Assembly (NCBI GenBank): GCA_023261595.1
Contig: JAHFOQ010000003.1
Location: 1-51,885, forward strand
Source: a bacterium
Lineage (GTDB): Bacteria > Patescibacteriota > Saccharimonadia > CAILAD01 > BJGX01
Reading direction: 5' to 3'
Length of the DNA: 51,885 bases
The notes below the pieces were generated by a model. That model searched no databases. It saw only the letters and a program-made list of their open reading frames with translations, and was not told the origin of the DNA. The translations under genes were made by a program, and so were the position numbers. Of the stretch, positions 12,716 to 40,100 are shown one piece after another (the first letter of the stretch is position 1; the number at the start of each line of letters is the position of its first letter).

Positions 12716-14155
12716 TTACTGTTCTTGTAATAATTTTAGCACAAGAGCATTGGCCTTGCCGGGATTTGCCTGACCTTTTGTGGCCGCCATAACTTGACCC
12801 ACAAAGAATCCAGCTGCTTTTTCATTACCCGATTTATAATCGGCCACAGCCTGAGGATTTTTCTCTATAATTGCTAAAATTATGTTTTCAATTTCAGAAT
12901 CGTCACTCATCTGTGTAAGACCTTTTTGAGATATAATTTCATTTGGTTTTTGTCCAGCAATTACATCGGTAAAAATTTCTTTTGCAGTTTTAGAAGAAAT
13001 ACTTCCGTCTTCGATTAATTTAATCAAATCAGCCAAATGTTCACCGGTAAGTTTTGAATCAGATTCGCTATGTTCACTCTTCCAGGCCTGATAATCACCA
13101 ACCAACCAGTTAACTATCTTCTTCTCGAGCTTTGGATTAGCAATACTGTTTTTGGCATCATAAAAGATTGTACGAGTCTGAACTTGACCAACCAAAATAT
13201 CTTGTTCGTCTGCATTCAGACCAAGCTGTAATAACTCTCTGCGAACATTAATTGGTAGAACCGTTTGTTTAATTTCATCTTGAACTGAATTAATAAATTC
13301 TTCTCTCAAATTAATAGGAGGGATGTCTGGCTCTGGAAAATATCGATAATCATTTGCTTCTTCTTTACTGCGTTGAGACACCGTTTGGCTCTTTGCGTCG
13401 TTCCAACCACGGGTTTCTTGGATTATTTTCTCACCACTCTCTAAAACCTCTATCTGACGCGCAATTTCGTACTTGAGTGATCGCTCGGCATTACGAAAAG
13501 AGTTGAGATTTTTTAGTTCTGTTCGAGTGCCCAGCTCATCAGTGTCACTCACCGAAACATTTAAATCAAATTTAAAGTTACCATGTTCCATATCACCGTC
13601 ACTTACTCCTAAAGTAGTGGCAATCGCATATATTTCTTGCAGATATCGTTTTGCTTCAACCGGACTATGCATATCTGGTTCTGAAACGATTTCTACAAGT
13701 GGTGTGCCAGCTCGATTAAAATCTACCAGACTATAATCTTTACCGGCCGGATGAGTTGATTTCCCGGCATCTTCTTCTAGGTGAGCATGGTGAATACCAA
13801 CCTTTTTAAATTCGTTATCAACAAGTATTTCAATATGCCCCTCTCCAATGATTGGTTCGCGCATTTGGGTAATCTGGTATCCTTTTGGACTATCTGGATA
13901 AAAATAGTTCTTTCTATCAAAACTCGTAGTATCGGCTATTTTTGCATTTAAGCCGTAGCCAAGACGAATTGCCAATTCTACTGCGCCTTTATTTACTACT
14001 GGTAGGCTACCTGGAAAAGCTAAACAAACAGGACACACATTGGTATTAGGTTTGGCGCTGCGACTATTATTATCGCAACCGCAAAACATTTTACTCTTAG
14101 TAGCAAGCTGGACATGAATTTCTATACCGATAGTTGGAGTGTATTGTTTTGACAC
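12716..14155 (-). CDS. gatB: Asp/Glu-tRNA amidotransferase subunit B
   Basis: IGIEIHVQL, FDRKNYFYPD, HLEEDAGK, DFNRAGTPLVEIVSEPD, DYRYFPEPD, C-terminal Yqey domain. Confidence 0.98.
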   Translation of the reverse strand: MSKQYTPTIGIEIHVQLATKSKMFCGCDNNSRSAKPNTNVCPVCLAFPGSLPVVNKGAVELAIRLGYGLNAKIADTTSFDRKNYFYPDSPKGYQITQMREPIIGEGHIEILVDNEFKKVGIHHAHLEEDAGKSTHPAGKDYSLVDFNRAGTPLVEIVSEPDMHSPVEAKRYLQEIYAIATTLGVSDGDMEHGNFKFDLNVSVSDTDELGTRTELKNLNSFRNAERSLKYEIARQIEVLESGEKIIQETRGWNDAKSQTVSQRSKEEANDYRYFPEPDIPPINLREEFINSVQDEIKQTVLPINVRRELLQLGLNADEQDILVGQVQTRTIFYDAKNSIANPKLEKKIVNWLVGDYQAWKSEHSESDSKLTGEHLADLIKLIEDGSISSKTAKEIFTDVIAGQKPNEIISQKGLTQMSDDSEIENIILAIIEKNPQAVADYKSGNEKAAGFFVGQVMAATKGQANPGKANALVLKLLQEQ

Positions 14156-19882: not shown

Positions 19883-20188
19883 TTAGTCCTGAAATTGTCT
19901 GGTTTTTAGGAGGTCGTCTAAAACATCTAGTTCGAGTGGGGCTTCTACTGATTCGACGAATTGTTTATTTGTAGATGTTTTGCTTGTTTCTCTCATCATT
20001 TTCTGCCAGGCTTCTTTATTGGGCCATCGAGCATATGCAATAAAAGTACCATCATTTAGTTTATGTAGGCTTGAACCAAAAGAACCACGTTCTTCATATA
20101 TTTTGGTTGTACCCTTATGCCATACCTCTAAAAACTCCTTTTCATTACTATTTTCAAGAAGCCTCCAATGATAGACAACCGCAAACAT
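19883..20188 (-). CDS. Antibiotic biosynthesis monooxygenase (ABM)-like protein
   Basis: MFAVVYHW...GSFGSSLHK...FIAYARWP pattern. Confidence 0.6.
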   Translation of the reverse strand: MFAVVYHWRLLENSNEKEFLEVWHKGTTKIYEERGSFGSSLHKLNDGTFIAYARWPNKEAWQKMMRETSKTSTNKQFVESVEAPLELDVLDDLLKTRQFQD

Positions 20189-20848
20189 TTATTTTTTCTC
20201 CGCAGTACAAAGATGTCGATATACGTACATATGTGCCATTACTGTGACAGGTAGAGTAATAACTAGACCAAGAAAAAGCGTAAAGATTGTTGCTAAATTG
20301 ATTAACCCAAGAACAATTCCGAAGCCCAGCAGCCACCATTTATGTCCGTAGGTGATTTTACCACTTTCTTTTAATGCTTCGACGGGTTGAAGTTTTTTAT
20401 CTACTACCAGGTTAAGGGTAAATTGGTATTTTATCGCCCAATAGATGCCGGGAATAATAAGAAGTAATAATCCACCGACAATAATAAGGCCAACCAGAAT
20501 TGATGCACCTAAATATGTCCAAAAGACATTTTCTGAATTAAATAATTGTGCAAATTCGGCAGGCTTATCGTCGATCGTATTAAGCTGAATGCGAATTAAT
20601 CCGATACCCGTCAGTATCTGTAGCCAGTACTGCAAGATAAGTAACCCCAAACTTACTAAGGTTACAACTGCAATTGTAGTAGTATTATGTGAACCTTGAA
20701 TCAAAGAACTGGCTAAATTTCTCATAGATGATGGAATCCCTACCAGAATTCCAGCAACAACGAGTGAACCAAGTATTAAGCCAAATCTAGAAAAAGCTTT
20801 GTCCCAGCCAATTTTGAGAGCCGAACCAATTGTTAGTTGTGATTGCAT
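20189..20848 (-). CDS. Integral membrane protein (DUF975-like)
   Basis: GLLLLIIPGIY...EALKESGKIT.GHKW motif, multiple TMs. Confidence 0.7.
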   Translation of the reverse strand: MQSQLTIGSALKIGWDKAFSRFGLILGSLVVAGILVGIPSSMRNLASSLIQGSHNTTTIAVVTLVSLGLLILQYWLQILTGIGLIRIQLNTIDDKPAEFAQLFNSENVFWTYLGASILVGLIIVGGLLLLIIPGIYWAIKYQFTLNLVVDKKLQPVEALKESGKITYGHKWWLLGFGIVLGLINLATIFTLFLGLVITLPVTVMAHMYVYRHLCTAEKK

Positions 20849-20959
20849 AATGTCTCCTAATTATTTTTGTAATATTACTTTTGCTTAATAGCATAAGCCA
20901 ACCACAAAAAAATAACAAATTTTAATAAGAAAAAACGGCTTATACAAACCGTTTTTTCT

Positions 20960-21036
20960 TGGTGGGTGATGAGGGACTCGAACCCCCGACATCCTCGGTG
21001 TAAACGAGACGCTCTAGCCAACTGAGCTAATCACCC
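20960..21036 (-). tRNA. tRNA-Val(TAC)
   Basis: Cloverleaf GGGTGAT...TT TAC AC...TTCGAGT...CCA. Confidence 0.97.
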
Positions 21037-21038
21037 AT

Positions 21039-21115
21039 TGGTGCGGGTAGGGAGACTCTAACTCCCGGCCTCATCCTTGGCAAGGATGCGCTCTAAACAA
21101 CTGAGCTATACCCGC
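21039..21115 (-). tRNA. tRNA-Gly(GCC), non-canonical D/T loops
   Basis: GCGGGTA stem, CATCC-TTGCCAA-GGATG anticodon arm, T-loop TTAGAGT, A-CCA end. Confidence 0.93.
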
Positions 21116-21140
21116 TTATGTAACTTTTCTTGCAATGACG

Positions 21141-21216
21141 TGGTGGCGAGACTCGGAATCGAACCGAGGACACGAGGCTCTTCAGGCCACTGCTCTACCA
21201 ACTGAGCTATCTCGCC
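21141..21216 (-). tRNA. tRNA-Phe(GAA)
   Basis: GGCGAGA stem, CT GAA GA loop, TTCGATT, CCA. Confidence 0.96.
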
Positions 21217-21338
21217 TCGCTTCCGAGGAAAAGTTTTCAAGTAACGTTGAATATGATAGCAAATTTTACCACATTTTTCCACCCCTTTCTCTAAGGAAGA
21301 GAAACAGGTATAATATGCAAAGTTCCCCAAACCGAAAC

Positions 21339-21412
21339 GGCGCGTTGGCCGAGTAGTTAGGCAAAGGTCTGCAAAACCTTGTACACCGGTGCGAATCCGG
21401 TACGCGCCTCCA
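21339..21412 (+). tRNA. tRNA-Cys(GCA)
   Basis: GGCGCGT stem, CT GCA AA loop, T-loop TGCGAAT, T-CCA end. Confidence 0.93.
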
Positions 21413-21417
21413 TAAAC

Positions 21418-21505
21418 GGGCGGGTGGTGGAATTGGTATACACGACAGACTTAAAATCTGTTGCCTATATATGGCTTGCGGGTTCAAGTCCCGCCTCGCC
21501 CACCA
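21418..21505 (+). tRNA. tRNA-Leu(TAA)
   Basis: ACAGA-CTTAAAA-TCTGT arm, long variable arm, A-CCA. Confidence 0.96.
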
Positions 21506-21548
21506 TAAAAAGATCTCTTCTAGAGGTCTTTTTTGTTATACTACATAA

Positions 21549-22391
21549 ATGAGTGCAAAAATTATTGATGGACGCAAAATAGCCCAAGAAATCGCAAATG
21601 ACTTAATAGCAGAAGTAAGTAGCCTTTCAACCAGGGGGACTGTTCCAAAGCTTGTCATTATTGGTATTAATCCTGACAAACGTGCACAGGTATATATTCG
21701 AATGAAGCAACGAAGAGCTGAAGAGGTCGGTATAACAACAGAATTTATTGATATAGCAGATAAAACCCCAGTTGAACAACAGAAATTTGTTTCCAATTTA
21801 GGCGAAGACACAACCGTACACGGAATTATTCTGCAACTCCCGCTTATGGGTTGGTATGATGTTCAGGATCTACTAGATTGTATTCCGGCCAATAAAGACG
21901 TAGATGGTTTAACAAGTATTAATCAAGACTTGCTAGAAACAGGAAACCCAAAATTTATTCCTGCCACACCCCTTGGAGTAATCGAGATATTAAAACAATC
22001 TCATATTTCTATAAACGACAAGACAGTTTGTGTAATTGGTCGAAGTAATTTAGTAGGTAAACCTTTGGCTGTTTTGTTTAAGCAAGCAGGTGCTAAAGTT
22101 TTAGTCGGACATAGACAGGTGGAAAATCTCACCAACTTAACTCGCCAGGCAGATATTGTAGTTGCTGCAGCTGGGTCACCTGGTTTAATTACTTCTGAGA
22201 TGATACAAAATCATGCTGTAGTGATTGATGTAGGAATTAATGAAATAGACGGTAAACTTCAGGGTGATGTAGATTTTGAAAGTGTGAAAAACAAAGCAAG
22301 TATTATCTCACCCGTTCCTGGCGGAGTTGGGCCTATGACAGTTGTTATGTTACTCAGCAATGTTGTAAAAGCAGCAAAAAGCTCTACCTAA
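21549..22391 (+). CDS. folD: Bifunctional methylene-THF dehydrogenase/cyclohydrolase
   Basis: IIDGR, HGIILQLPL, KDVDG, PATPLG, GRSNLVGKP, SPVPGGVGPMT. Confidence 0.97.
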   Translation: MSAKIIDGRKIAQEIANDLIAEVSSLSTRGTVPKLVIIGINPDKRAQVYIRMKQRRAEEVGITTEFIDIADKTPVEQQKFVSNLGEDTTVHGIILQLPLMGWYDVQDLLDCIPANKDVDGLTSINQDLLETGNPKFIPATPLGVIEILKQSHISINDKTVCVIGRSNLVGKPLAVLFKQAGAKVLVGHRQVENLTNLTRQADIVVAAAGSPGLITSEMIQNHAVVIDVGINEIDGKLQGDVDFESVKNKASIISPVPGGVGPMTVVMLLSNVVKAAKSST

Positions 22392-22409
22392 AAAGTAGAG
22401 CTATAACTA

Positions 22410-22640
22410 TCACCGAGAAAAGTTTCTTCGTACTGCCACGTCCATTAATCCTTCCGTAGCAACTTCAACCTCAATTAGCATTTCCTTAAAGATATCCGGC
22501 CATATTAGCTCAAATATTTCTTCTGCCAAAGCTACAGGATCAACAGGTGCATATGAATTTTTTATAGTACGTATCATCTTGGGGCCAATTTCATCCCAAA
22601 CTCTTTCTTTAATATTTTGTTCGATTGAGATGGGCATCAT
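22410..22640 (-). CDS. Small hypothetical protein
   Basis: 76-aa ORF with GGAGG SD. Confidence 0.6.
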   Translation of the reverse strand: MMPISIEQNIKERVWDEIGPKMIRTIKNSYAPVDPVALAEEIFELIWPDIFKEMLIEVEVATEGLMDVAVRRNFSR

Positions 22641-22686
22641 TTGCCTCCGTCGTCTGTGGTTGCAGGTAGTTAACTATTGGATTTCA

Positions 22687-23106
22687 TTATGAGTTGTAAA
22701 TATTCAGAAATAACCGAGTTAACTCCTCGAATACTTCCTTAGAGAATCCAGTTCTCTCTATGCAACCATTTAATCTCTTCTCTGCTAAAGCCGAGTCAAG
22801 ACCGAACACATAACTACCATCAACAGGAACACGTAAGTACATTGCACCGTTAATGTGCCATTCTCTCAATGAATCACGTGCGGTTTGACTGTCACCATGC
22901 AATGGATGTTGCACTATGTAAAACCCACAAGTTGTATTGGAGCTGACACAAATGTCATTGACTCGTTTATAAACTGCGACACATGCTTCATCGTATCGTT
23001 TTCTTAGACTAAGGTCTGTATAACCCTTAAGTATAAGAAGAGAGAATATTGCATCAAAAATGTCATGCTGGAGAATTTCAACTTCTGCTCGATCGCTTGT
23101 TGTCAT
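22687..23106 (-). CDS. Hypothetical protein downstream of tRNA-Leu(GAG)
   Basis: Start taken as MTTSDR at 23106 after AGGA. Confidence 0.6.
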   Translation of the reverse strand: MTTSDRAEVEILQHDIFDAIFSLLILKGYTDLSLRKRYDEACVAVYKRVNDICVSSNTTCGFYIVQHPLHGDSQTARDSLREWHINGAMYLRVPVDGSYVFGLDSALAEKRLNGCIERTGFSKEVFEELTRLFLNIYNS

Positions 23107-23196
23107 CACTATCCTACTCTCTTTATAGATATAGGTACCAAGCGGTATTATATACCTATACACAATCACCCACAATCAAAATTGATTAGGGGTGAT

Positions 23197-23283
23197 TGGT
23201 GCGGACGAGAAGACTCGAACTTCCACAGCCTTTCGGCCACAAGCCCCTCAAGCTTGCGTGTCTACCAGTTCCACCACGTCCGC
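23197..23283 (-). tRNA. tRNA-Leu(GAG)
   Basis: CAAGC-TTGAGGG-GCTTG arm, long variable arm, TTCGAGT, A-CCA. Confidence 0.96.
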
Positions 23284-23367
23284 AAATTATTTATAAGTAC
23301 TTCAACCAATGCATAGCTTCGACAGAACAGGGATAATTGTACCAGATTTCAGATAAGTTTTCGAGTA

Positions 23368-25005
23368 TTAGTGGTTATACGACCCAGGCATATGATCGTC
23401 GAGGTGCTTCATTGAATATTCTTTGCGCATTTTTACCATTGCATCTTCGCGAGTCACATCAATTTTTACCCCAGGATTTAAAAAGTGTAGCGGATCAAAT
23501 AAGTCTTTTATTTCTTCGAAAATCTTGTAGATTTTTTCACCAAACATTTCTTTTAAGTATACTCCACGCATAATACCGTCATTATGTTCTCCACTATTGC
23601 TTCCGCCATATTTTTTTATAAGCGCATAAAACTTATCCGAAAGATCAAAGACTCTAGCTCTATCGCGTAAATTTTTTAGATCCATAAATGGCTGAATATG
23701 AAAATGCCCATTCCCCGCATGCCCCCAAACAGCTACATTTATTTTTTCTTTTTCAAACAGTTCGTATGCATCTTTTAAAAACTCAGTAAGTTTTTCTGAA
23801 GGAACAATACCATCTTCTATAATTGGAAGCGCTTTTTTCGGGCCATCTACCTTCCAAATAACTGCTGCAGCTCCACGTCGTATGCGCCATAAATCGTCTT
23901 GCTGGTGCTTATCAACTGCTACACGAGTACTAGCAGCGTAATGTTCTAATATTTTCATTGCTTGCTTGCCTTTTCGTTTGCGTGTACCCGGCTTAATATC
24001 GTCCAATTCGCATAATAAAACAATCTCCGGAATGTTCTCTTCTGAAACGAGACCCTTTAGGGATTCTGGTTTATTCTTTTTAAGAAATTCAAGTAGGTTT
24101 TTATCCACCACCTCTAGAGCACTCGGATCAAGTTTGAGTAAATGCTGAACCGCTTCAGAAGCTTTATGAATACTATCAAAATATCCTGCCATTAACATTA
24201 AGTCTGGATTATATGGAGCAGTACGAAACGTCGCTTCGGTAACAATACCAAGTGTACCTTGACTGCCCACGATCAACTGACTCAAATCAAAGCTACCATC
24301 CTTTCCTTTCACATCCCAAATATCATACCCTGCGGAGTTTTTACTTACTTTTGGACGTGTTGTAAGGATTTCTTCCCAATTATCAGAAATAATTTTATCA
24401 AGCTCACGATATAAATGACCCTCAAAATCGGGTTGTTGTTTTTTCTTTTTTAATTCTTTTTTACTTAATCGATAAGTACTTACAACATCACCGTTACTTA
24501 ACACAACTCGTAGTCCATTTACCCAATGTCGTGTTGTACCATATTTAACTGATTTTTCACCAGCGGCATTATTTGCAACTGCGCCACCAATACTCGAAAA
24601 ATCAATGCTAGCAGGGTAAGGGGGGAGATAGTGCAAATGACTATGCAAAACGGTCTGCAATGTAGCATAAGGCATACCGGGCTGTACAGTAACACTGTTT
24701 TTCTGAATATCAACCAAGGCCTTCATGTGGGCTGGAAACGCAAGGATTGCACCAGACCCAAGTGCTCCACCACTCTGATCCGTTCCCTTCCCTCGAGCTG
24801 TAAGTCCGACAACCTTCCCTTCTTGGGCTTGCCAGTTTAAAAACTTAACCGAATTCACTACATCCATTTCATCACGAGGGTAAATAACAAATTCTGGTTT
24901 TATAGTAAAAATACTTCCATCGGTCGAGAAATATTCTCGGGCTGTTTCTGATGCAGTTACTTCACCACTTATTTGGCTCGCAAGATCTTTTAGTAGGCCT
25001 TTCAT
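23368..25005 (-). CDS. FAD-linked oxidase (GlcD/D-2-hydroxyacid dehydrogenase-like)
   Basis: ARGKGTDQSG, IGGAVANNAAG, GSQGTLGIVTE, GHAGNGHFHI, SGEHNDG, LNPG; start taken as MKGLLK. Confidence 0.9.
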   Translation of the reverse strand: MKGLLKDLASQISGEVTASETAREYFSTDGSIFTIKPEFVIYPRDEMDVVNSVKFLNWQAQEGKVVGLTARGKGTDQSGGALGSGAILAFPAHMKALVDIQKNSVTVQPGMPYATLQTVLHSHLHYLPPYPASIDFSSIGGAVANNAAGEKSVKYGTTRHWVNGLRVVLSNGDVVSTYRLSKKELKKKKQQPDFEGHLYRELDKIISDNWEEILTTRPKVSKNSAGYDIWDVKGKDGSFDLSQLIVGSQGTLGIVTEATFRTAPYNPDLMLMAGYFDSIHKASEAVQHLLKLDPSALEVVDKNLLEFLKKNKPESLKGLVSEENIPEIVLLCELDDIKPGTRKRKGKQAMKILEHYAASTRVAVDKHQQDDLWRIRRGAAAVIWKVDGPKKALPIIEDGIVPSEKLTEFLKDAYELFEKEKINVAVWGHAGNGHFHIQPFMDLKNLRDRARVFDLSDKFYALIKKYGGSNSGEHNDGIMRGVYLKEMFGEKIYKIFEEIKDLFDPLHFLNPGVKIDVTREDAMVKMRKEYSMKHLDDHMPGSYNH

Positions 25006-25104
25006 ATGTAACAAGCATAACAATTTTACTGACTATTTCAAAGCGTTGTTTGATATTTTCTTTAAAAAGTATTACTATAAAACATAAGTAGTATCATTTC
25101 TATT

Positions 25105-25974
25105 ATGGCAAATAAAGCAAAAACACACACAAGTTCAAAAAGATTTGCAAAAGCAAAGCAAAATAAATTCTTAATCGCTGCACTTGTACTCGTATTCTTA
25201 GTTGCTGGTGTTTTCTTAATTTACAACAGCTTTGCTAGTGGAATTCCCGTGTTTCGTACCGATCCAGATTATTGGCGTCCTCGTATTGGTAAATGTGAAT
25301 CTGGTAACTTTTATCAAAACAAGAAAAACCCAACTCACTTTGGAGCATTTCAGTTCGATCTTGGAACATGGCGTGGAGCCGTTGGCGCAGAGCTTGCAGC
25401 CCAATATCCAAACCCTGCAGATGCTCCGCCAGCCATTCAAGATTTAGCTTTTAATAATACCTTTGCCCGTCGTGGTACACAGCCATGGAACGCTAGTTAT
25501 CATTGCTGGATTAAAGGTGCAACTGTACCGGGAGCAGTCGAAGATCAGATAAGTAGTTTTGTTGCTACACCTGCAATTACACCGGTTACACCACCGGCTC
25601 GTCCGTTTGGTATCACATCTGGAAGTTATAATGTTGTGGTAAATGGTCGAGTTACATTAAATGATCAACCCATACTAAATGTCGTTTTAGCAACCTGTAG
25701 TGGCGATCGTACCGTTACAACCGATGCCGATGGAAGATATAGTTTTGCAGCACCGGTTAATACGAACTTTTGTATCCGACCCGTAAGTGGTATTCCTGCT
25801 GGCGCACAACTAACACGAATTGCAAATAATGTAGAACACGCCACAGATAGTACTTTCGAAAATCAGATTGCTGGAGTAGATTGTTATAAGCAATTCTGGT
25901 GCTTCTTAAGTCCAAGTTATACCTGGGATAGAAGTAGAGATTCAGGATATAACTTCTTCTATACAAAACCCTAG
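25105..25974 (+). CDS. Secreted/anchored Rpf-like transglycosylase domain protein with C-terminal Ig-like domain
   Basis: TM/signal; W.PRIGKCESG...FGAFQFDLGTW...PADAPPAIQD...GTQPW; then VNGRV...TTDADGRYSF. Confidence 0.8.
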   Translation: MANKAKTHTSSKRFAKAKQNKFLIAALVLVFLVAGVFLIYNSFASGIPVFRTDPDYWRPRIGKCESGNFYQNKKNPTHFGAFQFDLGTWRGAVGAELAAQYPNPADAPPAIQDLAFNNTFARRGTQPWNASYHCWIKGATVPGAVEDQISSFVATPAITPVTPPARPFGITSGSYNVVVNGRVTLNDQPILNVVLATCSGDRTVTTDADGRYSFAAPVNTNFCIRPVSGIPAGAQLTRIANNVEHATDSTFENQIAGVDCYKQFWCFLSPSYTWDRSRDSGYNFFYTKP

Positions 25975-26001
25975 GTTCGCTGTAATAAATTAATCTCGTC
26001 A

Positions 26002-26091
26002 ATTTGCTCAATCGGACTAACCTTAGGTTTCAATTCCTCACCCAATTCCACAACAGAAAGTCCCATGCGGGACTTCTTGTTTTAGTGTGGA
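26002..26091. repeat. 90-bp direct repeat, copy A (tRNA-Leu 3'-derived)
   Basis: Ungapped match to 26903-26992, 82/90 identical by hand alignment. Confidence 0.95.
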
Positions 26092-26198
26092 ATTACAGAA
26101 TTTACTTAAACTTTTTGATGCGCTTGTGAATGGTCTATTGCTAGGCGCGCCTACCATTCGGTCAGTAACTTATATGAGAACGAGGTGATCTAATGATA

Positions 26199-26798
26199 TT
26201 ATTCACCGACATTCCCTGTTTTAATTGTTCCCGCACGCGCGTACCGGGCGACCATAACGCCTTTCTTACCAACGTGATTTTCAATGAGTTTAAATGTTCT
26301 TGGAGCTTCACAACCATTAAAAAGTTTTTTTCCTTTTCCGAGAATAATCGGATAAGTCATAAGACAGAGTTCATCTACAAGTTCATTTGCAAGGAGTAAT
26401 TGCACCAACTTACTACTACCCCACACGTGGAGGTCAGGACCATTTGATTTCTTCAACTTTGTGATATCTTTCACGTTTCGCAGAAAAGTGGTATTTTGCC
26501 AGGAAGTTTCTGTCTTCGTAGCAGATAAAACATACTTCATATTGTCATTTATAAATGGCCAAACCTCACCGTGCTTGGGCCAATAATGAGACCAGATCTC
26601 AAATGTATATCCTCCTAGTAAGTATTCAACATTAGCCTTGAGTGCTGGACCAGTTACCAATCCTGCCGCATCATCGTCCATAAATGGCGCTTGCCAACCT
26701 CCGAATTCGAATTTAGCTGTCGGGTCTTCCTCTTGACCGCCTGGTGCCTGCATGACACCATCAATCGTTACAAATTCTTGGACAATAATTTTTCGCAT
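26199..26798 (-). CDS. Dihydrofolate reductase family (RibD C-terminal-like) protein
   Basis: MRKIIVQEFVTIDGVMQAPG, WGSSKLVQ, LVDE...YPIILGKGKKLF; start after AAGGAG. Confidence 0.9.
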   Translation of the reverse strand: MRKIIVQEFVTIDGVMQAPGGQEEDPTAKFEFGGWQAPFMDDDAAGLVTGPALKANVEYLLGGYTFEIWSHYWPKHGEVWPFINDNMKYVLSATKTETSWQNTTFLRNVKDITKLKKSNGPDLHVWGSSKLVQLLLANELVDELCLMTYPIILGKGKKLFNGCEAPRTFKLIENHVGKKGVMVARYARAGTIKTGNVGE

Positions 26799-26829
26799 AC
26801 TACCACTCCTTTTATAAAACCATAATATC

Positions 26830-26854
26830 AAAAAAAGACCTTGCGGTCTCTTTT
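26830..26854 (-). terminator. GCAA-tetraloop terminator
   Basis: Minus strand GAGACC-GCAA-GGTCTT then T-tract. Confidence 0.75.
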
Positions 26855-26868
26855 AATGTGTTAATGGT

Positions 26869-26886
26869 TAGTACGGATGAGAGGAC
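26869..26886 (-). repeat. Duplicated 3' end of tRNA-Leu(CAG) (att-like)
   Basis: tagtacggatgagaggac vs tggtgcggatgagaggac (26984-27001), 16/18 identical. Confidence 0.85.
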
Positions 26887-26902
26887 AGCGCCAGATTTTC
26901 GC

Positions 26903-26992
26903 ATTTGCTCAATCAGACTAACCTTGGGTTTCAAGTCCTCACCCATTTCCAAAACAGAAAGTCCCTTGCGGGACTTCTTGTTTTGGTGCGGA
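26903..26992. repeat. 90-bp direct repeat, copy B, overlapping the tRNA 3' tip
   Basis: Matches copy A; contains the GTCCC-GCAA-GGGAC hairpin (minus strand). Confidence 0.95.
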
Positions 26993-27069
26993 TGAGAGGA
27001 CTTGAACCTCCACGGGATTGCTCCCACTAGAACCTGAATCTAGCGTGTATACCATTTCACCACATCCGC
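26984..27069 (-). tRNA. tRNA-Leu(CAG)
   Basis: CTAGA-TTCAGGT-TCTAG arm, long variable arm, TTCAAGT, A-CCA. Confidence 0.96.
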
Positions 27070-27102
27070 TCACTTTGTGATTATATCAAATGTATTCTCT
27101 TA

Positions 27103-28842
27103 CTATTTTGTTTTAGCTTTTGGTTGCAATGTTGTATTTAGATACCATTTTTGTACATCATAAAATCTATCGCTCGGTTCAGAAATCTTCTGTGCAGAAA
27201 ATCCATGTAGCGTATCGCTCTGTGCGTAATTATAAAACGGTGTATACAGTATAATCGCAGGTAAATCTTTACTCCAGGCCTGCAAAAAGGCAGCATAGCG
27301 TGTTTGTCGATAATCAGCATCTTTAGCAATTCTTCCGGCCTCGAGCTGCTTATCTACTTCAGGATTGCTATAATTACTTACATTAAGGCCCGGGTCAGTT
27401 ACTTGACTAGAATGCCAATAGCTATACACATCAGAATCGATACCTAAATCTTGACCATATAAAAGTACATCGTAATTACGCGGGCGAATAGCAGTTTGTT
27501 GGAGAGTGCCGAGGTCCATTTCATTAACTTCTACCTTAATACCTAATTTTTCCCATTGTGTTTTTAAGGCCTCCGCCACTTCGGCATAACTAGAATTCTT
27601 TAAGGTTGCGATGGTAATAGTAGTGTTATTTGTATTAGCTTGACCAATTTTCTGCATAAGATCTTTTGCAGCGGATAGATTATAGTCATAGCGTGGTGCA
27701 TTTGCATCAAAACCACTATAACCGGCTAGAATAGGATATGGAACTGCAATGGCTTGATTATGAAGTTGATTACTAACGAGTGATTTCTTATCAGTTGCAT
27801 ATGCAAGAGCTTGTCGCATTCGCGGATCAGATAATTCGGGAGATTTCATATTAAAGAATGCCCCTGCATACGCTGGCATATTTAGGTGATGAATCGTAAC
27901 ACTATCTATCTTACTTACTTTTTCAAACTGCTGAGTATTACCTATCGCGAACCCCATTATTTGCTGTTTAGCATATCCATCAACATAATCATTCGAAGAT
28001 GGATATTCAACAAAATTAAACTTAGTAATATTCGGCGCGCCAAAATAATATTTTTTGTTAGCTAACAATTCTATGGTTTGTAGATGAGGATCAAGCTGTG
28101 GCAAAATGTACGGTCCTGTTCCTACCGGTTTTTGATTAAACTCATGTGTTTTAAGGAGATTTGGTCTAACATTTTCGAGCAAATGTTTTGGTAATATTCC
28201 CAGGGTAGCATTACTAAGAAATGGCCCATAACTCGTTGGCAATGTAAAAACGATGGTTAATGGATCTATAACCTGATATCGAACATTACTCCAGTTTGCA
28301 GATTCTCCACTACGGGTGTCGGGATTTTGAACTCGAGCAATGGTAAATGCTACATCTTCTGCGGTAAATTTAGTACCATCATGCCACACAACATTTGGAC
28401 GTAGATGGAACGTATAGGTCTTTTTGTCAGAACTAATATCCCAACTTGAGGCAAGGTCGCCTTCTATCTGTCGATTACTATTTACACGCGTAAGGCCCGA
28501 AAAAACAAGACGACTAACGTCACTGCTGCCTGGATTGTCAGTAAACAATGGATTAACGGTAACAACCTTATTACTAATTGCTTCTGCATATGTTCCGCCA
28601 GAGAGTGGTGCTGCAACAAGATAATGTGAATTTGCTGAAGAAATTTGACCTACTATTCCCCAAATACTTACCGTAACAACAAGAATCATGCAGATTATCA
28701 TCCAACGAACTTCACCAAGTTTTTTCCATCCCCCCACAAGATGTCGGTTTAAATAATTACGAAACCAAACTTCCCATATATGAAAACTCCGCTTAAAGCG
28801 GCGTAAGCTCCGATTAGTTTTAAATTTTAGATAAGAGCCCAT
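27103..28842 (-). CDS. ABC transporter substrate-binding protein, family 5 (peptide/nickel)
   Basis: DLASSWDIS.D.KTYTFHLR..V.WHDG..FTAEDV.FT, PVGTGPY. Confidence 0.92.
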   Translation of the reverse strand: MGSYLKFKTNRSLRRFKRSFHIWEVWFRNYLNRHLVGGWKKLGEVRWMIICMILVVTVSIWGIVGQISSANSHYLVAAPLSGGTYAEAISNKVVTVNPLFTDNPGSSDVSRLVFSGLTRVNSNRQIEGDLASSWDISSDKKTYTFHLRPNVVWHDGTKFTAEDVAFTIARVQNPDTRSGESANWSNVRYQVIDPLTIVFTLPTSYGPFLSNATLGILPKHLLENVRPNLLKTHEFNQKPVGTGPYILPQLDPHLQTIELLANKKYYFGAPNITKFNFVEYPSSNDYVDGYAKQQIMGFAIGNTQQFEKVSKIDSVTIHHLNMPAYAGAFFNMKSPELSDPRMRQALAYATDKKSLVSNQLHNQAIAVPYPILAGYSGFDANAPRYDYNLSAAKDLMQKIGQANTNNTTITIATLKNSSYAEVAEALKTQWEKLGIKVEVNEMDLGTLQQTAIRPRNYDVLLYGQDLGIDSDVYSYWHSSQVTDPGLNVSNYSNPEVDKQLEAGRIAKDADYRQTRYAAFLQAWSKDLPAIILYTPFYNYAQSDTLHGFSAQKISEPSDRFYDVQKWYLNTTLQPKAKTK

Positions 28843-28848
28843 TGGTTT

Positions 28849-29067
28849 TTAGCGGACAACAAGTAGACCAACTAGACTTGCAACAAAACCAGTCGCTAGC
28901 GCTACTGTAAGATAAAATAATACGCGTTCAGCTCCGCGTTTTGTTCGGTAAAACCCACTGTCTCCGCCAAAAGCACTGCCCAAACCAGAACCTTGGTTTT
29001 GCAAAAGAATAACAATAATTAGCAGTGTGCTAGTTATGATTGTGGTTATGATTAATGCTGATCTCAT
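28849..29067 (-). CDS. secG: Preprotein translocase subunit SecG
   Basis: ILLQNQGSGLGSAFGG...RTKRGAE, two TMs. Confidence 0.93.
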   Translation of the reverse strand: MRSALIITTIITSTLLIIVILLQNQGSGLGSAFGGDSGFYRTKRGAERVLFYLTVALATGFVASLVGLLVVR

Positions 29068-29423
29068 ACTTGTTCCTCTTTTAAAATAAATAAATCAATG
29101 CAATAGTTAGCGAGCCAAACGATTATTACTGCTCCAATTGCTGCCCATATGCTGTGTAGCTGAAAGGGTGGATAAATTTTGGTGGTAATCCATAACATTA
29201 GAGCGTTTACAATTAATGTAAATATTCCAAGTGTCAGTACAATTGCAGGAAGACTGATTATAACAACTAATGGCCTAATAAGAGCATTTACTACGCCGAA
29301 AATTAGACTGGCGATTAAGAGAATAATCAATCGATTCTGATAATCGACCCCAGGAATAAGTAGGCTTGCTAAAAATAGACCTACGCCATTTCCAATCCAG
29401 CTCCATATAAATCGTTTTAACAC
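29064..29423 (-). CDS. Phage holin family (YvlD-like) 4-TM protein
   Basis: NALIRP....SLP...LTLGIFTLIVNA. Confidence 0.88.
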   Translation of the reverse strand: MLKRFIWSWIGNGVGLFLASLLIPGVDYQNRLIILLIASLIFGVVNALIRPLVVIISLPAIVLTLGIFTLIVNALMLWITTKIYPPFQLHSIWAAIGAVIIVWLANYCIDLFILKEEQV

Positions 29424-29483
29424 TTCGTTATTTTACCATAACAGACGGGTTTTTCCGAGAGTTTTGCATAAGTTTTCTCGAGT

Positions 29484-30944
29484 CTACTCGGGTGTAGTAT
29501 GTTTTGTTTGCTCGAGAATCTTTGCAGTTAATTTCGGTCCAATAAAGTCTGAAATATCTTTTTCTGTAGCATCCATTACCGCACGTGCACTACCAAAATG
29601 TCGAATAAGTTTCTTCCTAGTAATTGGACCAATCCCTGCAATGTCTTCAAGTGCTGAGCTGCTGGTGCGCTTTTTTCGGACAAGGGTGTGATAACTCACT
29701 GCAAAACGATGAGCTTCATCGCGAATTCTCTGTAATAAATGAAGTAGAGGTGTACCTGGATCAAAATTTGTGAGAAAGAACTCTCCCTCCCTCCTACTTT
29801 TCGAACTAGCATTTTCTTTTGCATCATCAATATGCTGTACGATTGTTTCGTAACGCTTCGCAAGGCCAACAACTGGTACGGTAATACCATCATGAGCCAA
29901 TTGCTGACGAGCAGCACTGAGCTGTCCTTTTCCGCCATCTACAATAATTAAATCGGGTTTACCCCATTTGTTATTACGCGACGAGAATCTTCGTTGTAAT
30001 GTCTCGGCCATCATTGCAAAGTCATTAGGCCCTTTGGTACGCATTTTAAAGTGACGATACTCCTTATTGTCTGGGACACCGTCAGTAAACACTATCATAC
30101 TACTTACTGCGTCTCCACCAGCAAAATTTGAGATATCATAACATTCGATTCTACGAGGAGTTTTACGTAATCCGAGCAACTGGGCTAATTCAATTAATGC
30201 ACTATCCAGCGTAAGATCGAATGTTTCTTCTCGACCAAATACGATTTTTGTATGTAATGACTTTATCGCTAAATATTGGTTACGAACACCTGCAGCGGTT
30301 TCATAGTCTTTCGTTTTAGCCAAACGTTTCATCTCTTTTTCTAATTCTTTTAAAAGAGTGTCTGTCTTACCTTCAAAGATCAACATTAATCGTTTAATAC
30401 CTCGTCGATATTCTTCTTGGCTCATATCTGGCAAGGGTGCTACCCCAATTTGGTATTCAAGTTTTGATAACTTAGTTTGCTTCGGTTTTGTATAGTATGG
30501 AAAAATCTTTCGCATGTAGCGCAAAGCTTGTTTTACTTGATATCCAGAAACAAAAGGGCCAAAATATTTACTTTTATCTCCGACTGGTCTTCGTACTAAC
30601 GTGATGTAGGGATATTCTTCTTGCAAAGCAACTTTTATATAAATAAAGTTTTTATCATCGCGAAGCTCGATATTGTAGAGTGGTTTATGCCTTTTAATAA
30701 ACTCAGCCTCTAAAAAAAGTGCTTCAATTTCGGAATCTGTTTCTATCCAGTCAACAACAGCGATATTGCTAACAAGTATAGGAGTTTTTACATCTCGATG
30801 TTTCTTCTGAAAATAACTATTAACCCTACGTTTCAGAATAGATGCTTTACCGATGTAGATTATCTTTCCTGTTGCATCTCGAAAGAAATATACTCCGGGT
30901 TTTGCAGGAAGTTGTTTTAATTTTTCTTGTAGGGATGTCTTCAT
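29484..30944 (-). CDS. uvrC: Excinuclease ABC subunit C (compact)
   Basis: GIY-YIG (PGVYFF..IIYIGKA), UVR domain, RIECYDISN, PDLIIVDGGKGQL, RIRDEAHRFA, HhH. Confidence 0.96.
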   Translation of the reverse strand: MKTSLQEKLKQLPAKPGVYFFRDATGKIIYIGKASILKRRVNSYFQKKHRDVKTPILVSNIAVVDWIETDSEIEALFLEAEFIKRHKPLYNIELRDDKNFIYIKVALQEEYPYITLVRRPVGDKSKYFGPFVSGYQVKQALRYMRKIFPYYTKPKQTKLSKLEYQIGVAPLPDMSQEEYRRGIKRLMLIFEGKTDTLLKELEKEMKRLAKTKDYETAAGVRNQYLAIKSLHTKIVFGREETFDLTLDSALIELAQLLGLRKTPRRIECYDISNFAGGDAVSSMIVFTDGVPDNKEYRHFKMRTKGPNDFAMMAETLQRRFSSRNNKWGKPDLIIVDGGKGQLSAARQQLAHDGITVPVVGLAKRYETIVQHIDDAKENASSKSRREGEFFLTNFDPGTPLLHLLQRIRDEAHRFAVSYHTLVRKKRTSSSALEDIAGIGPITRKKLIRHFGSARAVMDATEKDISDFIGPKLTAKILEQTKHTTPE

Positions 30945-37107: not shown

Positions 37108-40100
37108 TTGCAGATAAAGGCCAAAACCTGGATTTCCAGAAATAAGCTGTCATACTTCAGCTCTCATAAAGCCAGTTTTATAATTGGTTTATTTGTCGTA
37201 TTTGCTGTTTTATCAACGCTTATTTATACAAATTATTCCCCTAAGAAAGCACAAGCAGCTGCGGGTATAAACGAACAACTTAACTATCAAGCCCGATTAC
37301 TTGATAGCACCGGTGCAGTTGTAGCTGACGGTACCTACAATATGGAATTCAAAATTTATCAAGATGGTACCGGCTGTGTAAGTGGTGGTTCTCCCCCTTG
37401 TAGCGGTACCCTTAAGTGGACAGAAACTCGCACTAGTACCAATAAAGTTACCGTAAAAAATGGTTATTTCTCGGTTAACTTAGGTTCGGTTACCGCTTTT
37501 AGTACTAGTGTAGACTGGAACCAAGATACACTCTGGTTGAGTATAAACATCGGCGGTACTGGCTCTCCAAGCTGGGATGGTGAAATGACACCTTTCCGTC
37601 GCCTTGCTGCTGTACCGTATGCTATGAATGCCAAACAACTTGGAGGGCTCGATTATTCACGCTTTGTTCAACTCGCTCCTACTGCAGTACAGGTGGATAG
37701 CGGAACACTTAGCTCAATTTTTATAAACAAGACCGGTGCAAGTGGCAATATTTTGCAGCTACAAAAAAATGGTACAAACGTACTTACCCTTGATAATGCT
37801 GGTGTGGTAAATTCAAGCTATACTTCCACTTCTTCCACTGCGGGATTAGAGATTGGTTCAATTTGGACCAACACCGATACAGGAGCTGTTACCACAGGGA
37901 CCGACGATACCAGAGGTATGCTTGTAAGTGTGTCGAGAACAGGAGGTAGCGGATCTGCAGTACTTAATACATATGGTGTTTATGGACTTGCACAAGGTGA
38001 CACTGGTGGGACAAGTACTGTAATAGGGGTGGCTGGAATCGCTGTATCTGGAGATGTAAATTATGGAGTAACAGGACTAACACTTGTTACTGGTAGCGGT
38101 CAAACAGAGGCAGTTGGTGTATTTGGAAGTATTGCATCTTTTGCAGGCTTTACCGGAACACAAACAACCACGAATGCTCTGAAAGCCCTAGTTGATATAA
38201 GTACTGCAGGAACTTATACTACTGCTTCTGGTCTTTCAATTGAAACATCAACACTTAGTGGTGGTGGCACTATTGGTACAAATTATGGTGCATGGATAAA
38301 AACTCAGACAGTAGGTACAACAAATTATGGTCTGCGAGTAGATACTGCTGCAGGTGCAGGCACAAACCAAACTGTCTGGATTGCCGGCAATGATGCAAGC
38401 GCCACAACTGCAGCTAAAGGTATCGCATTTGGCAGTACCAAAGATGTTACTTTGTATCGTGGAGGTGCAACTACACTCCAGACCGATGGTTCATTTTTAA
38501 CGGGTGGACGTGTTGCAGTAAATTCAATCGGTTCACCAGGAACAAATGAAATATTTCGAGTCAATACTCCAAACACGGTAGATAATTCAACCATAGCAAT
38601 TATTACCAATACCGGTACAAATACAAATAAAGTACTTACCTTGCAAGGAGTAGCAGGGCAATTTGCAGCATATCTATCTAACCAAACCAGTGCTGGTACT
38701 ACTTTATCTAGTATTGATCTTCTTGGTAGTTTTCGTGCACCTTCTGGTACCAATACGACTCCTGGGTTAACTTTTCAAGCAGAAAATACTTTAGGCCTGT
38801 ATCGTGTTTCATCTGGTGTACTCGGTATTACTGCCAATGCAGACGTTGCACAATTTAGCTCAACCGGTCAAACACTTACCGGTGATTTTACTTTTACTAC
38901 TGGTGCAACTCGTACAATTAGTCTTGGTACCTCAACTACTGGCACTGGTAATACTCTCACAATTCAGGGAGCGACCGGGCTAGCGGCTGGACCAAATGCC
39001 GGTGGTATTGTTTCTCTAACTGGGGGAACCGGTGGTTCTTCAACCGGGCTTGGGTCTGGTGGTGCCGGTGGTGCAGTTAATATATCTGGTGGTGCAACGT
39101 ATAGTAATAACTGGGTTGGTTCAGTAGGTGGAGCAGTAAATATAAGTGGAGCTACGCCAATTGCATCTGTTGTTGCAACAAGTTCTACGGGCGGTGCACT
39201 AGTGCTTACTGCTGGCACCGGTGGTGCAGCGAGTGGCTTTGCATCATCTGGCGGGGGTGCTGGTGGTGCTGTATCTATCACTTCAGGTAGCGGTGGGGCT
39301 GCAGGTGGTGGCGGAGACAAAACTGGTGGTAATGGCGCCGGAATTACCCTAACTGCTGGAAGTGGCGGTGTAAGTATAGGGACTAACGCAAACTCTAATG
39401 GTGGAAGTATTACCTTCCAAGGCGGTAGTGCTGGTACCGGAGGTGGTGGTGCTGCAGGTACACCCGGGAATATCAATCTTCAGGTAGCAACCAACGGAAA
39501 TATTAATGTTGGCGCGAATGCGGTTGCCCAAACGGTAAATATCGGTAATGGTACTGGGGCTACTGCAGTTTCGGTATTATGCGGAAGTGGTGCCTGTGGG
39601 TTTGGTAATAATGGTGTTGCACACAGCACTATTATTGGTAGCACAACTGGTGGTTCTATTACCTACATTCAAACCGGCACGGCTGGTCTAAATATTGCCA
39701 ATGATGGAGTATCAAACACTGTACAAATTGGTAATGCTAATACTGCTTCTTCTCAAACAATAAATATAGGTAATAATGCAAATGCCAGCGGTATAAGTGT
39801 ATTAAATATAGGTTCAGGCCAAAGCTCGAGTGCAACAACTATTCAAGCAGGTTCTGGCGGTTTATTCTTGGGTACTGCTGGCATCTCTAATACCATTCAA
39901 ATTGGTAATACAACTGGTGCTGTAGCTCAAACTATCAATTTTGGTACCAATAGTACTGGTAGTTCTACAACGAACATCAACATCGGTTCGAGCATTGCAG
40001 GTACCACAGCAATTACAGGACCTACTACCATTACTGGACGTACATCTGGTGCATTAGATACACTAACTGTCAGTAATTCCACAAGTACAGGTTCTATAGC

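Follow-up and report, generated by a model that had tools for sequence, protein, structure and literature searches.

Tyrosine integrases target tRNA genes at sublocations in the T-loop or at the 3' end, the core motif of integrons is GTTRRRY, and free-standing GIY-YIG homing endonucleases, such as the Seg-type enzymes of phage T4, normally home without duplication of their target. In an account of streptococcal elements that are either integrative and conjugative (ICEs) or integrative and mobilizable (IMEs), cis-mobilizable elements (CIMEs) are defined and tandem accretion at the 3' ends of tRNA genes is described (PMC5704250). Here we describe a locus that resembles each of these systems in part. 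It occupies positions 26,002-27,069 of a 51,885-nucleotide (nt) stretch of contig JAHFOQ010000003.1, referred to as a whole as the window, from a Saccharibacteria metagenome-assembled genome of 0.8 Mb in 42 contigs. Read in the sense of the tRNA, which is the minus strand of the window, the gene for tRNA-Leu(CAG) is followed by three modules: a structured unit A, a cassette of about 0.8 kilobases with a RibD_C-family gene, and a truncated unit B. With a probability of roughly 0.55, we consider the locus to be a stack of non-autonomous insertion modules at the 3' end of this tRNA gene, each module carrying a copy of the tRNA's last nucleotides (its tail). The sequences themselves show the anatomy of the locus, insertion polymorphisms among relatives, the spread of the elements across tRNA species, the conservation of the cassette ends and the absence of a dedicated recombinase; the act of insertion is one that we infer.

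Like CIMEs, the modules contain no genes for recombination, have at their boundaries repeats that match the 3' end of the target gene, stand in tandem at one tRNA and can have cargo between them (PMC5704250). The bounding repeats, which include the target 3' end, are tail copies 2 and 3 and the tail of the tRNA itself (Table 1); the only open reading frame (ORF) between them is that of RibD_C, and genes for integration or transfer are absent. No related ICE, IME or phage with an integrase for the same site was present in the collections searched, an absence that is not proof. Unlike CIMEs, the modules are 95-150 nt long, have a conserved folded body and a mirrored tail, and represent one family at many tRNA species. 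Similarities to tRNA-borne islands and prophages are that the insert rebuilds the tRNA, that a displaced tail marks the far end, and that the repeat starts in the T-loop or T-stem. In contrast to islands, the modules are a hundredfold smaller, no integrase lies beside the tRNA, and neither the mirrored tail nor the body within a partial T-arm has an equivalent in islands.

A reading of the window made from its sequence alone had listed the tRNA gene, a GCAA hairpin, the mirrored tail, a direct tail copy, a terminator, the ORF and a 90-nt repeat, and every one of these features was found again in its place. Its description of the repeats as tRNA-derived and similar to attachment (att) sites also holds. 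Unit A consists, in order, of a hairpin, the mirrored tail, a palindromic core, a covarying stem-loop and the direct tail copy. The arms of hairpin A are at 26949-26965 and 26970-26986, and its stem opens with the tRNA's own CCA paired to TGG. A direct repeat search matched the 19 nt at 26868-26886 to 26983-27001 with 89% identity. Unit B is without the 3' half of the stem-loop and without a tail copy of its own. The two units share a 90-nt direct repeat (26002-26091 and 26903-26992) that is identical at 82 of 90 positions (91%); compared as units, A and B agree at 75 of 81 positions, and the single unit at the same tRNA of a congener (G001) agrees with A at 69 of 80 and with B at 67 of 80. 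The tail copies decay outward, with 16/18 and then about 10/18 positions kept here, and similar gradients are seen at tRNA-Ala in this genome and at tRNA-Ser in locus L145. Such gradients are consistent with insertion beside the tRNA, each newcomer displacing the older modules outward. In relatives, the intact form of tail copy 3 ends in '...TCCGCACCA'. The DNA fold of unit B pairs its decayed tip (26083-26100) with the far side of its hairpin (26042-26058); the two have changed together with a 9-bp stem extension kept, and this joint change may be compensatory.

Table 1. Parts of the tRNA-Leu(CAG) locus and the genes on either side, in window coordinates.
Feature	Position	Strand	Basis
tRNA-Leu(CAG), anchor	26984-27069	-	ARAGORN; Rfam tRNA 56.5 bits
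Repeated 'tail': final 18 nt of tRNA-Leu(CAG), T-loop end to CCA			
Hairpin A: GCAA loop, terminator-like, U-rich 3' side	26949-26986	-	inverted repeat I3, folds, terminator scan
Mini-element A (unit A), 115 nt, non-coding	26869-26983	-	sequence, RNA fold, covariation
Mirrored degenerate tRNA tail/T-arm	26927-26951	-	read from sequence
Tail copy 2, direct copy of tRNA positions ~59-76	26869-26886	-	16/18 identical to tRNA tail
RibD_C cassette 5' module	26799-26868	-	directly after tail copy 2; terminator-like hairpin and promoter-like stretch
RibD_C-family ('dihydrofolate reductase family') gene, cargo, 199 amino acids and stop	26199-26798	-	Pfam PF01872
Cassette 3' module, includes palindrome 26126-26169 (inverted repeat I1)	26101-26198	-	
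Tail copy 3, decayed tip closing the cassette, start of unit B	26083-26100	-	~10/18 positions kept (count by eye)
Mini-element B (unit B): hairpin, mirrored tail, core	26002-26082	-	direct repeat D1
Transglycosylase-like-domain gene, convergent flank	25105-25974	+	syntenic in congener
Solute-binding protein family 5 gene, other flank	27103-28842	-	syntenic in congener

Unit A is one of several such elements in the genome. The 41 tRNA genes found by ARAGORN were scanned for a copy of a 12-mer of their tail, with one mismatch allowed, up to 450 nt downstream. Copies of the tRNA's own tail were found behind six of the 41, one of which is a scaffold-gap duplicate and was dropped, leaving five real cases. 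This recurrence is more than chance would give, since the same scan had one hit upstream of 41 tRNAs and six in 2050 random windows. The five tRNAs are Leu-CAG, Leu-TAG, Arg-GCG, Arg-CCT and Ala-GGC, and the last of these carries a tandem pair of elements. Analogous units are thus present at four other tRNAs of this genome, a point that the sequence-only reading had wanted checked genome-wide. In tRNA sense, the elements have a common build: the tRNA; a hairpin starting in the CCA; a degenerate mirror image of the T-arm and of the 3' strand of the acceptor; a small palindrome at the point of contact between this mirror and a directly repeated 5' strand of the T-stem; the folded body; and a direct tail ending in CCA. 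The direct tail copies start at the end of the T-loop or in the 3' strand of the T-stem, and by its sequence the body looks as if it sits inside the T-loop of a partial direct tRNA copy. The case that was dropped is on contig C6 of this genome (G000; 13373-13670), where two identical tRNA-Lys(TTT) genes stand on either side of a run of N, a scaffolding duplicate and no biological repeat.

Comparison with relatives provides examples of gain at otherwise matching sites. At the syntenic Leu(CAG) locus of congener G001, the same solute-binding and transglycosylase-like genes flank a tRNA that is identical to ours at 86 of 86 positions and is followed by one mini-element, with neither a second unit nor RibD_C. 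A comparison of cargo at the same tRNA in relatives had been suggested by the sequence-only reading, and this one supports the view that the gene between the repeats is an insertion, the congener's syntenic locus being without it. In G002, a new element with a different hairpin lies between tRNA-Leu(CAG) and an older, decayed element. G025 has a G.U pair between the acceptor 5' strand and the tRNA's own tail, while pairing of that strand with the displaced copy is perfect; it looks as though the tail now beside the tRNA was brought in by the element. Empty sites are found at tRNA-Arg(CCT) in G001 and at tRNA-Arg(GCG) in both G001 and G002: the sequence after the tRNA there matches the sequence after the tail copy here, and the inserted piece is therefore exactly hairpin, mirror, body and tail copy.

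The elements also extend to other tRNA species. A loose pattern for a second type of body was run on 60 genomes of the order and matched in 48, while a reversed-pattern control matched in 19, so chance matches occur; only the 14 hairpin-type matches in 30 returned loci were analysed. Eleven of these 14 lie 74-89 nt behind a tRNA on the same strand, at 11 different tRNA species, and an exact 13-mer of the tRNA's own tail follows eight of the 11. At L010:1612-1681 (G021, minus strand), ARAGORN finds no tRNA where tRNA-Leu(CAG) is expected; the first 7 nt of the tRNA are joined directly to an element core and a perfect tail with CCA, and a second element follows. The sequence reads like what would be left by a deletion of the tRNA body from the acceptor 5' strand up to the mirrored copy.

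Folding of the unit, another check proposed earlier, found it structured both as RNA and as DNA and on both strands. For the Leu-type element, RNA fold z-scores are -5.96 on the tRNA-sense strand and -3.83 on the opposite strand, and DNA fold z-scores are -4.97 and -5.29 for the two strands. In an alignment of seven Leu-type elements from five genomes, the internal stem-loop (helix 3) covaries, with one pair occurring as AU, CG and UA, and five of the seven sequences have a U.G pair that works on the tRNA-sense strand only. The helix between mirror and tail shows decay only in this alignment, without compensatory change. The second, longer body type, found behind this genome's tRNA-Ala, has compensatory changes in 11 of 19 predicted pairs across 15 copies. 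A covariance search of window positions 20000-30000 against Rfam 15, with E values up to 1, returned tRNAs and no match for the element. A tRNA-like minihelix was considered and rejected, as the acceptor-stem half of the mirror is degenerate even where the tail copy is perfect.

The RibD_C cassette behaves as a module in its own right. Its ORF scores 54 bits against Pfam PF01872 (cut-off 24.1), and an NCBIfam scan of the protein matched no model at E values up to 1e-5. As called, the ORF spans 26199-26831; the start is probably at 26798, because close homologues have 199 amino acids, and the terminator scan places a terminator-like hairpin at 26836-26849 ahead of it. The gene occurs in four of the 60 genomes of the order, counting this one; both congeners lack it, and the highest identity in the remaining three is 53%. 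Homologues of 199 amino acids with 75-91% identity are nevertheless common in other Saccharimonadales, and the source names of the closest of them place the present organism in the Saccharibacteria/Saccharimonadales. Eighteen loci were compared, this one and 17 with close homologues. A 5' module that combines a short leader with a terminator-like hairpin and a promoter-like stretch occurs in ten, and where present it always directly follows '...GCACCA'. A 3' module, a palindrome with a conserved end, is found in eight, in one of them (L053) after a different gene, and where present it ends in '...CGCACC(A)' or a decayed form of this.

What stands upstream of the cassette varies: the tail of tRNA-Leu here, other tail-like ends at several loci, and the 3' module of a different gene at L053. 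At L050 the cassette lies behind a tail copy of tRNA-Gly(GCC), which itself lies behind a mini-element, and at L048 the RibD_C gene is bracketed by 75-nt repeats made up of the 3' part of a mini-element and a tail. The final 8 nt (CCGCACCA) are shared by tRNA-Gly(GCC) and tRNA-Leu(CAG), and a cassette would thereby have a simple path from one anchor to the other. The sequences thus point to a coding cassette with conserved ends that uses tail-bounded slots and appears to have moved between tRNA-Gly and tRNA-Leu anchors. These results also modify the earlier description of the locus as a cassette capture unit: its non-autonomous, att-like repeats stand, but the 90-nt units do not form the two ends of a single capture unit. 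They are copies of an independent family of mini-elements that is cargo-free at most loci. The cassette has conserved ends and a tail-like tip of its own and stands in other contexts elsewhere, so that the bracketing of the RibD_C gene is a side effect of modules stacking up at a single hot spot of insertion. Mobilisation in trans and pairing of the inverted copy with the pre-tRNA, both proposed in that description, are possibilities.

In several ways the cassette is reminiscent of those of integrons, with small single-gene units in one orientation, a 3' module that looks like a structured recombination site, a short shared core, arrays at a fixed site and, in relatives, neighbouring cargo of an accessory kind (glyoxalase, DUF1801, YCII). 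Looked at as an integron-type 3' site, it has a palindrome and a conserved end with GCACCA at both junctions; the DNA fold of the palindrome is not above shuffles and the core differs, being the tRNA tip CCGCACCA at the junctions and not GTTRRRY. Unlike integrons, the locus has no IntI and is anchored at a tRNA gene, and its cassette carries a terminator and a promoter-like module of its own. A scan of 61 neighbouring ORFs in 13 of the 17 other loci found small accessory genes and no recombinase. Neighbours of RibD_C in the same orientation at L047-L063 include a CsoR-type repressor with DUF305 and DUF4396, glyoxalases, DUF1801, YCII and HAD proteins, and these loci look like accessory-gene arrays; further junctions of a tail-like end with the conserved cassette leader are seen at L055, L056, L061 and L063.

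The sequence-only reading had reported no recombinase in the window, and none of the 43 ORFs of at least 80 amino acids matches a recombinase or transposase Pfam family. It had also suggested looking further afield for a tyrosine recombinase, and that search returned a single Phage_integrase match in the genome, which is Xer-type by NCBIfam scores; at 159.5 bits against an integron-integrase cut-off of 265, it falls below both integron-integrase cut-offs. Exactly one Phage_integrase match is likewise present in 27 of 32 genomes of the family. A serine integrase was rejected, as there is no Resolvase match above cut-off in this genome. No transposase family was found among the window ORFs, which is as far as the search for DDE families extended. 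The elements are like repetitive extragenic palindromic (REP) sequences with their REP-associated tyrosine transposases (RAYTs), and like derivatives of the insertion sequences IS200/IS605, in being short, hairpin-rich, non-coding and multi-copy; unlike them, they are tied to tRNA ends, which they copy. Origins involving IS200/IS605 or RAYT were rejected, Y1_Tnp being found in three of the 32 family genomes and not in this one. Examined as miniature inverted-repeat transposable elements, the units show no duplication of fixed length (the repeats are 15-29 nt), and their only inverted ends are derived from the tRNA. The 18-nt length of the tail equals a retroviral-type primer footprint, and an origin of the tail by reverse transcriptase was also considered; it was rejected, as an RVT_1 profile search of the genome gave no match.

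Small GIY-YIG genes are found in the same tail-bounded slots in relatives, where, as with homing genes of this family, the target stays functional. Among the GIY-YIG matches listed in the family, 26 of 55 are ORFs of less than 150 amino acids. Sixteen such loci were inspected: a tRNA is present in five, tail duplicates in four, and exact direct repeats of at least 13 nt flank the GIY-YIG ORF in seven. The order at L143 is tRNA-Gln, mini-element, tail, GIY-YIG gene, tail, mini-element, and at L145 it is tRNA-Ser, GIY-YIG gene and three further tail copies. Unlike homing genes, there is no nuclease gene at the locus described here, and the relatives' proteins, of 85-148 amino acids, have no recognised DNA-binding domain. 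Within L145:1000-1830 (G017), tRNA-Ser(CGA) is followed by the GIY-YIG gene and two non-coding cassettes, each beginning with a 13-nt sequence and ending with its reverse complement; the inverted ends place every tail copy in the loop of a potential hairpin. The small GIY-YIG copies of the present genome are on contig C20 and none is at the Leu(CAG) locus. At the start of that contig (1-420; L040), a gene with an 85-amino-acid frame lies in a tandem repeat of about 292 nt, each repeat preceded by a stretch like the 5' end of tRNA-Asn, and the 13-mer that flanks it also flanks a GIY-YIG gene in G023 (L144).

Two further genes of the window lie outside the locus. A FolD gene (methylene-tetrahydrofolate dehydrogenase/cyclohydrolase; 21549-22388, plus strand) is 4 kilobases from RibD_C, beside a cluster of five tRNAs. 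A giant ORF of 2921 amino acids (37108-45870, plus strand) has a carbohydrate-binding module and, near its C-terminus, an endosialidase-chaperone (Peptidase_S74) domain.

In the explanation that we favour, a stack of tail-carrying modules, each module would carry, or be closed by, a copy of the last 15-29 nt of the tRNA, and insertion would leave the tRNA intact with a tail copy behind the module. Later modules would enter beside the tRNA, so that the array grows outward and the newest module is nearest the tRNA. Two of the modules would be the structured non-coding element and one the RibD_C cassette, which elsewhere stands behind tRNA-Gly(GCC). The recombination is most likely confined to the tRNA tail. 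Catalysis could come in trans from an enzyme encoded elsewhere than at the locus, either the host Xer or the small GIY-YIG nucleases found in such slots in relatives; alternatively, DNA taken up by the cell could undergo RecA-type recombination, with the whole tRNA providing homology on the left and the tail copy on the right. Two histories would lead to the present arrangement. Unit B may be an old resident, with the RibD_C cassette added later and a sister of B added after that, or the block of unit A, tail and cassette may have arrived at once from a close relative.

Several observations weigh against this explanation. Unit B lacks its 3' part, and a deletion of about 35 nt must be assumed under either history. 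Loci with a tRNA and a hairpin only (L011, and G002 at Leu-TAG) are not what simple insertion or excision at the tails would give. The element behind tRNA-Ala(GGC) at L212 (G014) closes with a tail like that of tRNA-Arg(CCT). The exact 17-nt core motif of this genome's elements is found in two of 301 genomes of the phylum, this one included, although the motif depends on the local T-arm and so is a poor probe, uninformative on how widely the architecture occurs. The elements have no enzyme linked to them. Excised circles or empty sites, which the sequence-only reading had proposed to look for, were not seen in four sequencing runs, examined as contigs only and with parts of the stretch uncovered, and neither these contigs nor any other result records an insertion event, a circle or an empty-site read. 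A single joint that goes back 902 nt (depth 2.7, with 35 nt on its short side) lies wholly inside the repeat, and it fits a circle or tandem and a mis-placement between units A and B alike. Lastly, the mini-element is 85% identical between congeners, compared with 76% and 80% for the flanking genes, and its helices covary; together, conservation and covariation are explained no less well, and perhaps better, by a selected function than by a selfish insert. Selection on an RNA or DNA structure is nevertheless compatible with the reading as a selfish insert. At L212:1451-1593 itself, the mirror fits tRNA-Ala and the flank after the tail resembles the region downstream of tRNA-Arg(CCT) in G021, a sequence pattern that suggests recombination between elements at different tRNAs.

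Its conservation and covariation, together with the hairpin-only loci, argue for a function of the mini-element, and the strongest of the other explanations is that it is above all a functional structured RNA, made as part of the tRNA transcript or from the 3' trailer, which might act in 3' processing or as a decoy or sponge. The tail copy and mirror would then be parts of the fold, and secondary homologous recombination would account for the bracketing of RibD_C. Its conservation above that of the flanking coding sequence, the covariation of helix 3 with a U.G pair (five of seven) valid only in tRNA sense, the compensatory pairs of the type-2 body (11 of 19) and the more extreme RNA z-score on the tRNA-sense strand (-5.96 versus -3.83) are all as expected of such an RNA. 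We still regard it as rather unlikely: the element is wholly missing at orthologous tRNAs of the congeners, it occurs in tandem with decaying outer copies, and the Leu-type hairpin A resembles an intrinsic terminator, at which transcription would end ahead of the body, while the closing helix with the tail shows decay only and Rfam holds no match.

Less likely again is that the repeats are attL/attR scars, or CIMEs, left by phages or islands with tyrosine integrases that have lost nearly everything else. Direct tRNA 3' repeats that start in the T-loop or T-stem, in tandem arrays with the newest nearest the tRNA and no internal integrase, have this appearance. Independent scars, though, would not share a covarying body of 90-150 nt across 11 tRNA species, the body breaks into the T-loop of the partial tRNA copy, which is not so in an att site, and no integrase beyond Xer is encoded here or in 27 of 32 family genomes. 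Scans of viral contigs with two core motifs returned ten and two loci, numbers close to chance for 16-18 specified bases by a rough estimate, and none has the hairpin-mirror-body-tail build. Mobility could be dispensed with altogether if template switching at the terminator hairpin had been followed by unequal crossing-over around an unrelatedly transferred gene. Two switches would be expected to leave the 3' third of the tRNA in direct, inverted and direct copies pivoting on a palindromic hairpin, and the junction of mirror and direct T-arm is a near-perfect snap-back palindrome; we nonetheless think this quite improbable, as it leaves unexplained the shared non-tRNA body at many tRNAs, the arrival of the hairpin with the body at sites that are hairpin-free when empty, and the fact that the RibD_C cassette keeps its ends where it stands in other contexts. 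Lastly, the repeat period of 901 nt might come from mis-joined metagenome reads in an assembly of 42 contigs, where a scaffold gap elsewhere duplicates a tRNA-Lys. The units differ at eight of 90 positions, and an unrelated assembly has a similar design of cassette and flanking repeats (L048). Contigs from two other samples cover both junction regions, one running from the tRNA through unit A to the tail copy (26858-27044) and one from the 3' module through the tip into unit B (26052-26182), and an assembly artefact is for that reason unlikely, to a degree that makes it the most far-fetched of the explanations.

In a full-text search, whose coverage did not extend to subscription journals, we found no published description of such elements in Saccharibacteria or Patescibacteria. 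The mechanism has a fair chance of being new in kind. Tentatively, and with less conviction than for the locus itself, we suggest that a cassette system anchored at tRNAs, and working without a dedicated integrase, may exist in Saccharibacteria and perhaps throughout the Patescibacteria. A module that ends in a tail has tRNA homology on both sides, and could be pasted behind that tRNA after DNA uptake, with cuts by small GIY-YIG or Xer enzymes possibly helping; the mini-element would be the minimal selfish form, and genes like RibD_C would hitch-hike. Few recognisable mobile elements are found in the ultra-small Patescibacteria. The locus and its relatives point to recurrent, precise addition of non-coding units and single genes behind tRNAs in genomes whose only integrase is Xer. 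If this is true, the modules would be a new class of tRNA-targeted element that explains accessory-gene hot spots, and they might also provide genetic tools with a natural landing pad in bacteria that are very hard to manipulate. Should the mini-element instead be a functional RNA, it would represent an unannotated, widespread RNA family linked to tRNA 3' ends. Were the tentatively suggested cassette system real, these ultra-small, naturally competent symbionts would have an integron-like route of gene gain.

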